From a virus (lineage: Duplodnaviria; Heunggongvirae; Uroviricota; Caudoviricetes): a DNA stretch of 64,000 bases. The stretch's first letter is position 1, and each line of letters begins with the position of its first letter. Positions 6,649-36,309 of this stretch are shown here, piece after piece. The stretch is taken from the IMG/VR virus record IMGVR_UViG_2571042390_000001. One strand, given 5' to 3'. A program made the translations under genes and the position numbers. The notes under the pieces were generated by a model. The model made no database searches. It was not told the origin of the DNA and saw only the letters and a list, made by a program, of their open reading frames with translations.

Positions 6649-7611
6649 GTGAGTATTTTAAATTCAGTTTCAGTAACTTTCAACACTTCTGAGTATAAAA
6701 ACAACACTGAATACCACAAAAAAATCAAAGGTCATCAGTTGAGTTTTTTTGCTCGTCATAGCGGTCTTCTTTCCCCTTCACATAGCGCCATTATTGCCGA
6801 GTTCGCCAACCTGGCAGGGTCTACCGATGAATACATGATCCGTCGCTCATATGCTGATATGTCCGAGATTACAGGACGCAGTATTTCTACTGTGCGCCGG
6901 GCATTTGCTGAAGCGACGAAGTGCGGAATGCTTGTTAAGCAACATCAGGTAGCGAATAACAATGCCCAGGTGTGTAACGTATATCGGTTTACGACACAAT
7001 TTCTCCACTTCATTCATGTAGCAATGGAGATAGGGGGTAAGCAGGGCATCAAATTTGCCAACGCCACAAAACTGGTTAAGCAGTTGATTTCAAAGGTTCG
7101 TTATTTTTTTGAAACTGGGAACCCCCTGTTCAAATTGAACAAGTCCCCCCATGTTCAAAATGAACAGCCAATAGAAAATAAGAGTCACTCTATAGCCAAA
7201 AGAAGAGAAAGATCATGCGCGGTTCAGCCAAAGGCTTCACCTGCAGATAGTTCTCAAACGGATAACGGGGTACTGGATAAAAAACCAGTAATCAGGGAAG
7301 AACATACCAACCACTGCCTGGCGGCGGCAAAAGCGAGAGCTGCAAAGCGTCGTTCAGACGAGGGGCACGCAAAACGGCAGGCTCTGTATCGTACCGCTGA
7401 AAATCTGGCAAAAAAATTTGCATGGATACGTAGTGCCGCTACCGCAGTGAATAAGCCTAAACAATCCAGTGCCCTAGATTTCTCAATGGATTATTCTGGC
7501 TCCCAGGGGTGTGCAACCATTGGTGAAGCCTTTGACCTGATGAAACAGCGTGGCTATCGGTCTGAATTTGACCGTGAGGATTGGTCAATCCCTGCGGGAT
7601 TTAGGGGATGA
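6649..7611 (+). CDS. Putative DNA-binding protein (320 aa)
   Basis: HTH-like segment RSISTVRRAFAEATKCGMLV; operator-like motif upstream. Confidence 0.45.
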   Translation: MSILNSVSVTFNTSEYKNNTEYHKKIKGHQLSFFARHSGLLSPSHSAIIAEFANLAGSTDEYMIRRSYADMSEITGRSISTVRRAFAEATKCGMLVKQHQVANNNAQVCNVYRFTTQFLHFIHVAMEIGGKQGIKFANATKLVKQLISKVRYFFETGNPLFKLNKSPHVQNEQPIENKSHSIAKRRERSCAVQPKASPADSSQTDNGVLDKKPVIREEHTNHCLAAAKARAAKRRSDEGHAKRQALYRTAENLAKKFAWIRSAATAVNKPKQSSALDFSMDYSGSQGCATIGEAFDLMKQRGYRSEFDREDWSIPAGFRG

Positions 7612-31728: not shown

Positions 31729-32496
31729 GTGGAAAATACTAAAGCAATTCAATACCGCTTGCGTAATGGCCTGCTGGTGGCTGTTAACGCCGACATGTCA
31801 CTGCCGTTTGACACGATTGAACGCACTATCATGACGTATCTCGGCTTTAATGAAGAACTGAATGAAGAGCATGGCGTAGCTATATGGAACGATGCAGATA
31901 ACGGCGCTCGTCGTCATATTACAGCCAGAGGAAAAGACTACTCTCTGGAAGAACTGTTTACCCTTGCACAGTCTTTCGAATGTGTAGCATTGGACCTGTT
32001 TAATGATCATGCTATAGCGCAACGACTTATCCGCGAGCTTGGGCTGTCCGTTACCCCAATCATCTTTAGAAATGGCAGCCTGACTGGCACATGGCGCGTA
32101 GAACGCATCTCAAACTACCTTCCATATAACCGACTGTTAAATGGAGTAATCTCCGGCGTTAATCAGCCCGTAGCGTGTGAAAATGTAAACCTGGTTGTCG
32201 CTGTTTTGGCAACCGCATGTCGTGTTATCGGTTTGGCTAAACAGGCATTTATTCATTTCCCAAATGGTGCAGAAGGTAGCGCAGAGATTATCGCGTGTGA
32301 TTTCGAATTTACCTGGATGCTACGAGAATATCTGGACCAAACAGTGTTCCGCGCCGAAGAACTGGATATGTATATCACGTCAACGATTCCTGATGATGTG
32401 CGTGCTGAAGCAATCGCTACAGCAAGGGCCAAATGCCGTGCGGCGATTGCAGAGCAGGCCAAAGAAGAAGTTAAGGAAGTGGCAGATGGCGACTAA
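31729..32496 (+). CDS. Hypothetical protein (255 aa)
   Basis: GTG start; in operon with dut and the DUF2829 gene. Confidence 0.4.
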   Translation: MENTKAIQYRLRNGLLVAVNADMSLPFDTIERTIMTYLGFNEELNEEHGVAIWNDADNGARRHITARGKDYSLEELFTLAQSFECVALDLFNDHAIAQRLIRELGLSVTPIIFRNGSLTGTWRVERISNYLPYNRLLNGVISGVNQPVACENVNLVVAVLATACRVIGLAKQAFIHFPNGAEGSAEIIACDFEFTWMLREYLDQTVFRAEELDMYITSTIPDDVRAEAIATARAKCRAAIAEQAKEEVKEVADGD

Positions 32497-33580
32497 GAGC
32501 AATATTTATAAAGATCCGCGCTGGCTGTCGCTGGTGGAGAAATATAAAGACAATTGGGTTCTGGCAGCAAAAGAATTGTTTGATATTGATTTAAGCCACC
32601 AGCAACAACAAATTGTTGAAGCTATACAGCCCAATAATGCAAAAGCTACTGTCACCACTCCGCATGGGATCGGACGACCGCAAGTGCTTGCTGTTATTAG
32701 TACCCTTTATACGATTATGTATCCTGATTCCCGGACAGTAATTGTTTATCCAAAATCAAATGCTTGCAAAAAAGGAATTGTTGCATATGTGTGGCAATGT
32801 TGGGAGGCATTACTGAAAAAACAACCTTTTATCATTGAGTATTTTAAGGTCGGTGATAGCGGTCTGATGTTCAATGAATTTTGGGGAATGTGCTTTTGTA
32901 ACTACCGCCTTAACTATGAAGATAGCATTGCAGGTCACTACGCCGACCATCTGTTATTCATTATTGTGGATTCCGCACATATCAGCGATCGGGCATACAG
33001 TATTGTGTGGGCAAGCATGACTAGTGGTGATTCACGCATATTGCTCACTTCAATTCCGTCACCAGAGGAAATAGGATTTTTTTATGATTCTCATCATGGG
33101 CGTGCTTTAGCTGAAGATAATCCGAGTGGTGCCTATAAAGCCATTAAGCTGAGTGCTGAGGATTCACCATTTATTACCCAAGAATATCTTGATCATTTTG
33201 CCGAAAGGTATGGCGGGCGAAATAGTGATGACTACCGTCGTATGATTCTTGGTGAGTTCCCTGGTATTAGGGAGGCTGTTCTTGAATCAGATATGCCGAA
33301 GACAATGCGCTTTTCGATGCCTGATGGTAGTGAATGGACAATACCATTACGAGTGATAGCCCGGCATCATGCGCAGCACCACGCCAAAAAACATGGCGTC
33401 ACGACATTAGAATGGTTGAAATCGCACACCATTCCACTCTTCACTGCAGATCACAATGCTATCGTTGAGTGGGCAAAAACAATTCCGTGGGAGAATGTCG
33501 CTGAATACGCCCACATGCTAAAACCGCCGAAAGACAGGCAAGAAATTAGCTGGCTGACAGCAGAAAAAATCATTGAGTGA
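32486..33580 (+). CDS. Terminase large-subunit ATPase-domain paralog with degenerate Walker motifs
   Basis: Homologous to PacB-like N-terminal domain (DPRW, HQQQQI, FYDSHH blocks) but P-loop is PHGIGRP and Walker B is IIVDS; no nuclease domain; ATG at about 32486. Confidence 0.55.
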   Translation: MATKSNIYKDPRWLSLVEKYKDNWVLAAKELFDIDLSHQQQQIVEAIQPNNAKATVTTPHGIGRPQVLAVISTLYTIMYPDSRTVIVYPKSNACKKGIVAYVWQCWEALLKKQPFIIEYFKVGDSGLMFNEFWGMCFCNYRLNYEDSIAGHYADHLLFIIVDSAHISDRAYSIVWASMTSGDSRILLTSIPSPEEIGFFYDSHHGRALAEDNPSGAYKAIKLSAEDSPFITQEYLDHFAERYGGRNSDDYRRMILGEFPGIREAVLESDMPKTMRFSMPDGSEWTIPLRVIARHHAQHHAKKHGVTTLEWLKSHTIPLFTADHNAIVEWAKTIPWENVAEYAHMLKPPKDRQEISWLTAEKIIE

Positions 33581-33587
33581 TAGTAAG

Positions 33588-33618
33588 AAGCCCGCCTGGT
33601 TGAGCGGGCTTCTTTTCA
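33588..33618 (+). terminator. Rho-independent terminator (between convergent genes)
   Basis: gaagcccgc/gcgggcttc stem followed by T-run. Confidence 0.55.
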
Positions 33619-33996
33619 AATATTGGAACCATATAGTTCACGTAGTTTTTTCGCTACTGAAGATACGGGGATTTCACCAGTTGCAGCCCCCACTGCAAGC
33701 TCCACCAGCACGGGATCATCATATACCTGTATACCGTTACGGCGTAGAAATAGCAGCGCACTGTTTAGCGCGGTACGCTTATTGGCATCATTGAATATAT
33801 GCCCTCTCGCCGTAGCCACCAGGTAGGTGGCGGAGACTTCGAAAAGGTCGGTGATCTCTTCGTAGGCAACTCTGGCCTGAACTCTCCCGATAATGGCCTC
33901 TGCCCTACCCGGATCTGACATTCCCGGCAGGCCGCCGTAGCGGCTTATATTCGCATCATGAAGCGCAATAAGTTCTTCCGGTGATATATGCCTCAT
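33616..33996 (-). CDS. doc: Doc toxin (Fic/Doc family, death-on-curing)
   Basis: Sequence recalled as near-identical to P1 Doc ([25 protein letters not shown] ... [19 protein letters not shown]). Confidence 0.9.
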
Positions 33997-34217
33997 TATC
34001 GGTTAACCAGTTCCTTGTTGGTGGAGTCCAGGGTGTCAAACAGGGATGCAAATTCAGCATCCAGCGCCGCCTTTTTGTAGGCTTCGAAAGTAGCCTTGCT
34101 GACAATTACTGCTGGTTCACGGCCTCTGCGGGTGATTTCAACCTCTTCCCCGGCTTCAACATTGTTGAGCAATTCAGAAAGGTTGCCGCGCGCGGTACGG
34201 AAGTTAATAGATTGCAT
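33996..34217 (-). CDS. phd: Phd antitoxin (prevent-host-death)
   Basis: [15 protein letters not shown] ... matches P1 Phd as recalled; start taken at the ATG two codons inside the track ORF. Confidence 0.9.
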
Positions 34218-34289
34218 AAACACCTCGTGTACTCGTTATGTGTACACAATCATAAACCTCACAGGCATAAAGCACCAGCACTTTGCAGC

Positions 34290-34679
34290 TTAAATAACCG
34301 GACAATCATCAAACTCCCCACTTCGGGCATCATTGATGACATGAGTGATCACACCAAAAACAGCATTACTGCCCGTGCATCCATCGTCATCTACTGGTAA
34401 CGCCTCTTTCTTCCCGGTGCTTAAATCCTCCAGGTGCTGGCGCGGATACTTTCGGTATCTCTTTATGCGATATTCTCCCTCCATAGCGCACACAAGCAGC
34501 GAACCATCAACCGGAGTAAGCGAGGAATCAACCACCAGCAAAGCACCCTGCAATATTCCCTCACGGTGATGGCTATCAGCTGCCCGCATGAAGTAGGTCG
34601 CTGAAGGATGTCTAATTATCTGCTGATCAAGAGAAATTCGGCTTTCAACATAATCCGCCGCAGGAGAAGGGAAGCCCAT
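34290..34679 (-). CDS. humD: HumD (UmuD' homolog, translesion synthesis accessory protein)
   Basis: UmuD-like LLVVDSSLTPVDGSLLVCAMEGEYRIKRY region; SOS box upstream; P1 synteny humD-phd-doc. Confidence 0.8.
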   Translation of the reverse strand: MGFPSPAADYVESRISLDQQIIRHPSATYFMRAADSHHREGILQGALLVVDSSLTPVDGSLLVCAMEGEYRIKRYRKYPRQHLEDLSTGKKEALPVDDDGCTGSNAVFGVITHVINDARSGEFDDCPVI

Positions 34680-34698
34680 AGCGTTTTACCTCAATGAT

Positions 34699-34715
34699 AC
34701 TGTTTATTCATACAG
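34699..34715 (-). promoter_or_regulatory. LexA (SOS) box upstream of humD
   Basis: taCTGTttattcatACAGta matches CTGT-N8-ACAG; about 20 bp upstream of humD start. Confidence 0.6.
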
Positions 34716-34802
34716 TATACATTGAAAAGGCATAGTTTGTGAAAGCGGGGTTTGTAGGCGCGCCACGCTGGGGGCTAATCACATTTCTCCCCCATCTTGC
34801 CG

Positions 34803-35054
34803 TTATTTTTTTGGTGCATCCTCGTTCTGATACACCGGATCGCTCCCTTTTGGCAACTGGAGGTTTAACTGCCGGTAGTGCCGTAGCCGTTCCATGAAAT
34901 AGGCGCGCAGGTTTTCCGGTTGCTCACGGGCCACCTGCTCTGCAATCACAGGTATATTCAGCCGTTCTTTGTAAGCAACGCCGCTGGCGGCAAGGTCTAC
35001 GTTCACCTTGTCTCGCTCTTCCTGGCTTTTAGCTGCTATATTTCGATCTGACAC
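34803..35054 (-). CDS. Hypothetical protein (83 aa); lxr-like position upstream of humD
   Basis: Position matches P1 lxr; no motif evidence. Confidence 0.4.
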
Positions 35055-35086
35055 AAGAAACCTCCAGGAGTTAGTGGATCAGGCAC

Positions 35087-35437
35087 ATGCACAACAACGT
35101 TCTCAATGTTAGCCGTTCAATTCAGACAATCAGAGACTGCACCAGTGTGGTGGCATCAATCCCATTGCGAAACAGCATAGACGAACTGCAAATTCGTGTA
35201 TTGAATCTGAATCAGGCTAATAAGCAATTGCGCTTTATTTTGACGCTGAAAAGTGAAACAGAGGGGATAAAGCACAGCGTAAAAGTGTTTTCTGAGGCCA
35301 TTCTGCTTCATGGGACGCTCCGGCATCTGGTAAGGCCAGAACGTCAATATCCTGACGTCCTGGCGCGTGAAAAAGACCTTCTTTCCGAAGTTCAGAATAG
35401 GGTGATCGATTTCGTTAAATGCCACCCACTACAATGA
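35087..35437 (+). CDS. Hypothetical protein (116 aa)
   Basis: Isolated plus-strand ORF between minus-strand genes. Confidence 0.3.
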   Translation: MHNNVLNVSRSIQTIRDCTSVVASIPLRNSIDELQIRVLNLNQANKQLRFILTLKSETEGIKHSVKVFSEAILLHGTLRHLVRPERQYPDVLAREKDLLSEVQNRVIDFVKCHPLQ

Positions 35438-35493: not shown

Positions 35494-36309
35494 TTAATAC
35501 CGGCATTCATAGCATGAGTATCTCCACTGTTCATGGTCAAAGCACCAGAATGCTTCCCTGGGCAGATTGTGTTTGTTCATTAGCGCCAGAACTTGCGTAG
35601 GCGTATTCGCGGGAATTTCTGGTAATAAAGCCTTCGCCATTTCATGAACCAACATGGCATCAATGACGCCTAGCGTATGGCCTGCCTTAATCTTTAATGC
35701 AGTTTCAAGATAGCTCCTTTCCAGAGTTGTGCTTACTCTTGGCTTCGGCACCTCTTGTGGATGAGTATCCAGACGGTTGCCAGATTCATAGGCTACCCGC
35801 AGCCAGTGCATGAATGTTTCAGTAGACACACAACCGCAGTCCAAGTCGATTTTTTCGCGTTGTTGCCCCAGCCATTGCTCAAAATTTAACTTATTGGATG
35901 CTTCAAGAGCCTCTTCGTATTGTTTGCGCGAAATTATTTCCGTGTATTCCTCGCGATCAAGGTTACTTATCGGAAGCCTGACCTCAAGGCAAAAATTGCG
36001 CCCACGCGGGCTTTTCGCTGGATCAGAGCCAAAAGCAAAGAAACCATATGATGGTTCACAGCAGTCCTCTCTAACCATGCGACAATCGAGCACATCATCA
36101 GGCCACCCTCCACGCTTTGGCAGCTCCTGCACCAACAAGTCAATCAGCTTTATACTCTCACCGTCTTTGCAGGTTGCTAACGCTATTTGGGCAAGCTCCA
36201 ATACCTCATCTGCCGTGTATCCAGCGCCGTGTCCATACATTTCGATGCGTGCAATAATCTCTGATATGCGAAATTTAGTGATTTTAGTCATAGTTTTATT
36301 TCCTTGCAT
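35494..36309 (-). CDS. Hypothetical protein (271 aa)
   Basis: First gene (3' end) of the minus-strand accessory array. Confidence 0.45.
   Translation of the reverse strand: MQGNKTMTKITKFRISEIIARIEMYGHGAGYTADEVLELAQIALATCKDGESIKLIDLLVQELPKRGGWPDDVLDCRMVREDCCEPSYGFFAFGSDPAKSPRGRNFCLEVRLPISNLDREEYTEIISRKQYEEALEASNKLNFEQWLGQQREKIDLDCGCVSTETFMHWLRVAYESGNRLDTHPQEVPKPRVSTTLERSYLETALKIKAGHTLGVIDAMLVHEMAKALLPEIPANTPTQVLALMNKHNLPREAFWCFDHEQWRYSCYECRY

Follow-up and report, generated by a model that had tools for sequence, protein, structure and literature searches.

In this P1/D6-type plasmid prophage, a 20-bp palindrome lying just ahead of humD is very probably the operator of the humD promoter for the host LexA repressor, a site to which, judging from its sequence and setting, LexA would bind and through which DNA damage would induce the gene. 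A LexA box before humD is already known, being annotated in phages P1 and P7 and published for both. The window, that is the whole stretch of 64,000 nucleotides that was analysed, is D6-like overall; the region around humD is 97.3% identical at the nucleotide level to the phage-plasmid RCS47, where the corresponding feature is annotated humD, and 93% identical to P1. The genes hot, humD, phd and doc follow one another in this order on the minus strand, and the first two, with the control region between them, comprise the following features.

34803..35054, minus strand: hot, a homologue of DNA polymerase III theta (DNA_pol3_theta, E=1.8e-32)
34714..34743, minus strand: predicted sigma-70 promoter of humD, a consensus match at 10/12 positions with an 18-nt spacer
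34698..34717, no strand assigned: predicted LexA operator (SOS box), reading TACTGTTTATTCATACAGTA on the plus strand and TACTGTATGAATAAACAGTA on the humD-sense strand
34689..34692, minus strand: Shine-Dalgarno sequence of humD, GAGG, read directly, 9 nt before the ATG
34290..34679, minus strand: humD, encoding a pre-cleaved UmuD'-like protein of 129 aa, without an adjacent umuC

The string taCTGTttattcatACAGta reported by the earlier note is present in the window at 34698-34717, and the interval under which it had been noted, 34699-34715, covers its 16-nt core, CTGT-N8-ACAG (34700-34715). Compared with the 20-mer LexA consensus TACTGTATATATATACAGTA, the box matches at 17/20 positions and all 3 mismatches fall in the spacer; it is thus a CTGT-N8-ACAG palindrome whose spacer is AT-rich, and it comes close to TACTGT(AT)4ACAGTA, as expected of a gammaproteobacterial LexA operator. 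On a heterology-index-like scale, which we built from known SOS boxes of E. coli and which is approximate and suited to rough ranking only, the box scores 2.7, the best value in the window and one comparable with those of the strongest boxes in E. coli. No more than two sites in the window, at 34698 and 7271, score below 9.9 on this approximate scale.

The second of these is a near-consensus LexA-type palindrome, TACTGGATAAAAAACCAGTA, at 7271-7290 (score 3.4, approximate scale), which sits within a repL-like lytic replication gene (6649-7611). Phage D6 has the identical sequence, the surrounding 271 nt are present in 110 PLSDB plasmids, and a search of its vicinity found no sigma-70-like promoter beside it. 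In P1, a LexA site at a coi-type promoter has been reported (PMC4713147); the scan for LexA-like sites found no counterpart of it in the window.

A palindrome of this kind could in principle be a chance match, or a neutral hitchhiker without a regulatory role. The bare 16-nt core would fit such an explanation, as its frequency is at chance level (one occurrence found in the window against 0.72 expected, and at least one in 54 of 100 shuffles), and for this reason the bare core was rejected as evidence. The full 20-mer, in contrast, never appeared in the shuffles: a match to the consensus with three or fewer mismatches was found in none of 100 dinucleotide-preserving shuffled sequences. Further evidence on this point comes from the comparison of related loci. 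We compiled a P1-family set of 83 sequences, comprised of the window, P1, P7, RCS47 and 79 IMG/VR loci, and in every one of them the box is located 18-19 nt before the humD ATG and the CTGT/ACAG half-sites are invariant. Members of the family are close kin, their HumD proteins being 95-100% identical among themselves, so that conservation within the family is weak evidence when taken alone. The variation that does exist, however, occurs in the spacer and not in the half-sites: the 27 distinct sequence types agree at all eight half-site positions, whereas individual spacer positions differ in up to 12 of them.

The comparison was extended to 12 distant HumD homologues with 41-94% amino acid identity, found in unrelated phages (N15, phiKO2, HK140, HK639, BTP1, Cyrano, Huey, pAEv1818, yong1, vB_Ecl_MII_001, PhiR41_1 and Pantoea G19). 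All 12 genes are preceded by a CTG-N10-CAG box that departs from the consensus at 2-5 positions and lies 14-44 nt upstream in 11 cases and 262 nt upstream in HK140, ahead of an intervening small ORF, and the flanking sequences of these genes are otherwise unrelated. From the site density in the window, ~0.1 such boxes would be expected by chance in the 3.6 kb searched. The box is thus conserved upstream of orthologous genes amid diverging surroundings (83/83 and 12/12), and we regard a chance match or a passenger without function as extremely improbable.

The earlier note had placed the box about 20 bp upstream of humD, which agrees with the 18 nt that separate it from the humD ATG (34679, minus strand). 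Read along the humD strand, the order of elements is TTCACA - 18 nt - TATACTGTATGAATAAACAGTA - tcatt - GAGG - 9 nt - ATG. The predicted -35 element TTCACA occupies 34743-34738 and the predicted -10 element TATACT occupies 34719-34714; this pair, which here is a consensus match only and has an 18-nt spacer, is the sole sigma-70-like promoter that the promoter scan detected within 33400-35200. The -10 element shares 4 nt with the start of the box, and the expected transcription start (~34708-34706) falls inside it. An operator lying over the -10 element and the expected start of a promoter, in this case a predicted one, is the classic layout for LexA repression.

The P1 record assigns humD a predicted promoter, PhumD, ~480 bp upstream, within lxr and not over the box. 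The hexamer of laboratory P1 that corresponds to the -10 element is TGTACT (~2563-2568 in the locus extracted from AF234172; 110-115 in M95666), compared with TATACT at 34714-34719 of the window. TATACT is also present in P7, in a wild P1 from infant faeces and in all other relatives, and the G at the critical second -10 position is found only in laboratory P1. This difference may explain why the annotators of P1 placed PhumD elsewhere, and it may reduce humD expression in laboratory P1.

The gene hot lies directly upstream of humD and is transcribed in the same direction. It ends 60 nt before the -35 element, and neither a terminator nor a structured RNA was found between hot and PhumD, where the fold is no better than that of shuffled sequences; LexA-independent transcription from hot could enter humD. 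The box might then act mainly on this incoming transcription, as a LexA roadblock or an RNA hairpin, and not as the operator of its own promoter, a proposal with which the far-upstream PhumD of the P1 record would also be compatible. Against it stands the constancy of the box when its neighbours change. Upstream of approximately -45, the P1-family sequences have three unrelated contexts (hot co-directional, as in the window; lxr divergent, as in P1 and P7; and a third type), and the -10 block AATGTATACTGT is nearly invariant and is kept with the box in all three, as is a -35-like TTCACA or TTGCAC at 18-19 nt spacing. The position of the box is likewise the same in other phages, where a tail-fibre gene or a divergent dinI precedes it. 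Moreover, the 6-bp AT-rich stem that the palindrome could form is not a terminator. A primary action on transcripts from hot is therefore highly unlikely in our estimate, and we retain the assignment of the box as the operator of the promoter that it overlaps.

The gene lxr ('LexA regulated function'), which in P1 and P7 is divergent from humD and shares the box with it, is absent from the window (34720-34802) and from RCS47. Since lxr is missing and hot abuts the humD promoter, the box in this element would serve humD only. A query made up of hot, the box and humD matches 639 PLSDB plasmids. Neither of the ORFs found upstream of hot, at 35087-35437 (plus strand, 116 aa) and 35494-36309 (minus strand, 271 aa), matches a Pfam family; the one of 116 aa occurs together with hot in ~20 related loci.

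Existing annotations agree with this picture. In the P1 record (AF234172), the protein_bind feature at 87545-87564 is described as 'LexA binding site in the regulatory region of lxr and humD', the P7 record (AF503408) has a LexA site at 94404-94423 for 'regulation of humD expression', and in the phiKO2 record the homologous site of that phage is labelled a lexA binding site; humD has also been termed a LexA-regulated SOS gene (PMC9603915). Together with the quality of the site, its overlap with the -10 element and the start, and its presence in 83/83 family members and 12/12 distant homologues, the annotations in P1, P7 and phiKO2 lend strong support to the proposal of the earlier note that humD is under LexA/SOS control.

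The assignment of the gene product as a UmuD' homologue, made in the same note, is confirmed by matches to the Pfam family Peptidase_S24 (PF00717, E=6.7e-9) and to the PDB entry 1UMU (E=4e-23), which give HumD an S24 fold homologous to UmuD. Residue 2 of HumD aligns with residue 1 of UmuD' (1UMU) and with residue 25 of full-length UmuD (chain 8gmt_B). The protein begins at the Cys24/Gly25 cleavage point of UmuD and lacks the N-terminal 24 residues, and the alignment from the first residue of UmuD' implies that HumD would be born in the activated form. The gene is located outside any operon with a umuC partner, its neighbours being hot and phd-doc. P1 HumD is reported to substitute for UmuD' (McLenigan et al. 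1999).

Taken together, these features suggest the following mechanism. The palindrome at 34698-34717 would be a high-affinity operator for host LexA, placed over the -10 element and the predicted start, and in an undamaged lysogen a LexA dimer on the box would block RNA polymerase. Upon DNA damage, RecA-stimulated self-cleavage of LexA would leave the promoter free and HumD would be made. Being a look-alike of UmuD', HumD would need no RecA-mediated processing, and its homology with P1 HumD leads us to expect that it would work with host UmuC in translesion synthesis. In the absence of a terminator between humD and phd-doc, some SOS-induced transcription would probably run on through the phd promoter (Pphd) into phd-doc and supplement that from the autoregulated promoter of the module itself. 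As far as humD is concerned, the element carries the standard SOS-controlled cassette of the P1 family, which matters little beyond annotation; a cassette of this kind can supply ready-made UmuD' to the mutagenic repair of the host under antibiotic or DNA-damage stress.

The genes phd and doc are located downstream of humD on the same strand, in keeping with the earlier note, which had also raised the possibility of SOS-driven read-through into this addiction module. Four features make up the segment between the humD stop codon and the end of the module.

34218..34289, minus strand: humD-phd spacer of 72 nt carrying Pphd, which is annotated at the homologous position in P1
33996..34217, minus strand: phd, antitoxin of 73 aa from the ATG annotated in P1 (PhdYeFM_antitox, E=3e-13)
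33616..33996, minus strand: doc, toxin of 126 aa (Fic/DOC, E=3.1e-9), its start overlapping the phd stop
33585..33614, minus strand: strong GC-rich hairpin of 12 bp, 2 nt beyond the doc stop codon (-28.8 kcal/mol, z=-3.5, 0/200 shuffles)

In the mechanical list of ORFs, phd begins at a GTG at 34223. The promoter Pphd has a -35 element TGGTGC at 34277-34272 and a -10 element TATGAT at 34254-34249, followed at 34248-34227 by the palindromic stretch TGTGTACACATAACGAGTACAC, which is identical to that of P1 and which we take to be the Phd/Doc operator. With a Phd/YefM antitoxin, an overlapping Doc/Fic toxin, its own promoter and a palindromic stretch, the locus is a phd-doc type II module. The -10 sequence TATGAT occurs in 5/81 loci and a perfect TATAAT in most relatives, with the adjacent palindromic stretch unchanged. 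A scan of the Pphd region (34218-34289) found no LexA-like site, and thus the module is without the LexA box within its own promoter that defines the SOS-regulated toxin-antitoxin loci.

Within the 72-nt gap between humD and phd, the terminator scan found no terminator and folding gave no structured RNA (z=0.24, no better than shuffles), and its length is constant across the 81 loci that cover it. Downstream of PhumD, the hairpin after doc is the earliest structure resembling a terminator; it has a weak U tract on the minus strand and is scored by the scan as a plus-strand terminator. With no terminator in the gap and the spacing fixed, the anatomy of the locus would permit read-through from humD into phd-doc. 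Further downstream, near the 3' end of doc, the window ceases to resemble P1, RCS47 and D6 at ~33659; pdcA and pdcB of P1 do not lie beside doc here, and their place is taken by an ORF on the plus strand (32195-33580, up to 461 aa) that matches no Pfam family and ends at the hairpin.

These observations can be extended to the proposal that humD-phd-doc is one SOS operon, in which damage-induced transcription shifts Phd and Doc enough to affect the fate of the cell. There is no terminator until after doc, and every locus that extends far enough has the same humD-phd-doc spacing. In addition, humD genes elsewhere do have a terminator: a canonical one follows those of N15, phiKO2, Cyrano and PhiR41_1, and in the last two phages, whose alleles are near-identical (HumD proteins 92-94% identical to that of the window), it starts 11 nt after the stop codon. 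On the other hand, phd-doc has the appearance of a separately mobile cassette. According to the P1 record, a conjugative plasmid carries a segment with 98% identity to the stretch that begins with the last 5 nt of humD and runs to the end of doc, and the homology of Cyrano and PhiR41_1 to the window ends exactly at the humD stop codon (34290 in the window; 1288-1330 in their extracted loci), so that the juxtaposition of the two units looks like a recombination junction. On these alignments, the humD stop codon marks the junction of the Pphd-phd-doc cassette with humD in the P1/D6 family, and the most economical history is one in which the humD terminator gave way to a self-contained cassette. 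The module also has its own promoter, without a LexA box of its own. The literature searched on humD in relation to LexA or SOS, and on phd and doc in relation to LexA, contains passing mentions only, with no data on humD-phd co-transcription and no supporting expression data; humD, phd and hot have been followed by rt-qPCR after thermal c1.100 induction, which is not SOS induction (PMC4713147). We therefore consider it unlikely that the three genes work as a single SOS operon with consequences for cell fate.

The component claims differ in strength. For some physical read-through from humD into phd-doc we estimate the chances as roughly even, and a repressor bound at the palindromic stretch of Pphd could act as a roadblock to it. 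Phd and Doc would both increase from a joint transcript, and the read-through is unlikely to have a physiologically meaningful effect. Equally improbable in our view is the specific scenario in which an SOS-driven humD-phd-doc transcript would bypass Phd/Doc autorepression and so make the amounts or the ratio of the addiction proteins depend on DNA damage. If true, this scenario would predict that survival or growth arrest of lysogens carrying P1/D6-type plasmid prophages is measurably affected, and the coupling would date from the replacement of the humD terminator by the phd-doc cassette.

Among known systems, the closest to the one described here is the humD LexA site of P1 and P7, which has the same half-sites at the homologous position 18-19 nt before the humD ATG, shares the -10 block, and is followed by humD, Pphd, phd and doc at identical spacing. 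The spacer of the box differs from that of P1 at 2 positions (ATGAATAA here, ATAAATGA in P1). In P1 the site is shared with the divergent lxr, whereas here, as in RCS47, hot lies directly upstream; laboratory P1 also differs in the candidate -10 element, TGTACT as opposed to TATACT.

The operator of the E. coli umuDC operon similarly is a near-consensus LexA box over the promoter of a umuD-family gene. Its sequence, which we take to be TACTGTATATAAAAACAGTA, differs from the box in the window only in the spacer. Unlike umuDC, the gene controlled here encodes the already processed UmuD' form, with no second, RecA-dependent activation step, and no umuC follows it. The genes of N15 (gene 26), phiKO2 (gp23), HK639, BTP1, Cyrano and other phages resemble humD of the window in having a box 14-44 nt before a gene of ~125-130 codons that starts with MG(F/M)PSP. 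In N15, phiKO2, Cyrano and PhiR41_1, however, a terminator follows the gene, and there is no toxin-antitoxin pair in the same orientation downstream.

The toxin-antitoxin loci of E. coli that are regulated by the SOS response, dinJ-yafQ, yafNO, tisB/istR, symER and hokE, have a LexA box in their own promoter. In the present element the promoter of phd-doc is without such a box, and the box is located ~480 nt upstream, before another gene; if read-through occurs, transcription of the toxin-antitoxin pair would nevertheless rise with DNA damage, as it does in those loci. The unterminated junction between humD and phd-doc thus offers a test case for SOS control of a toxin-antitoxin module by position alone.
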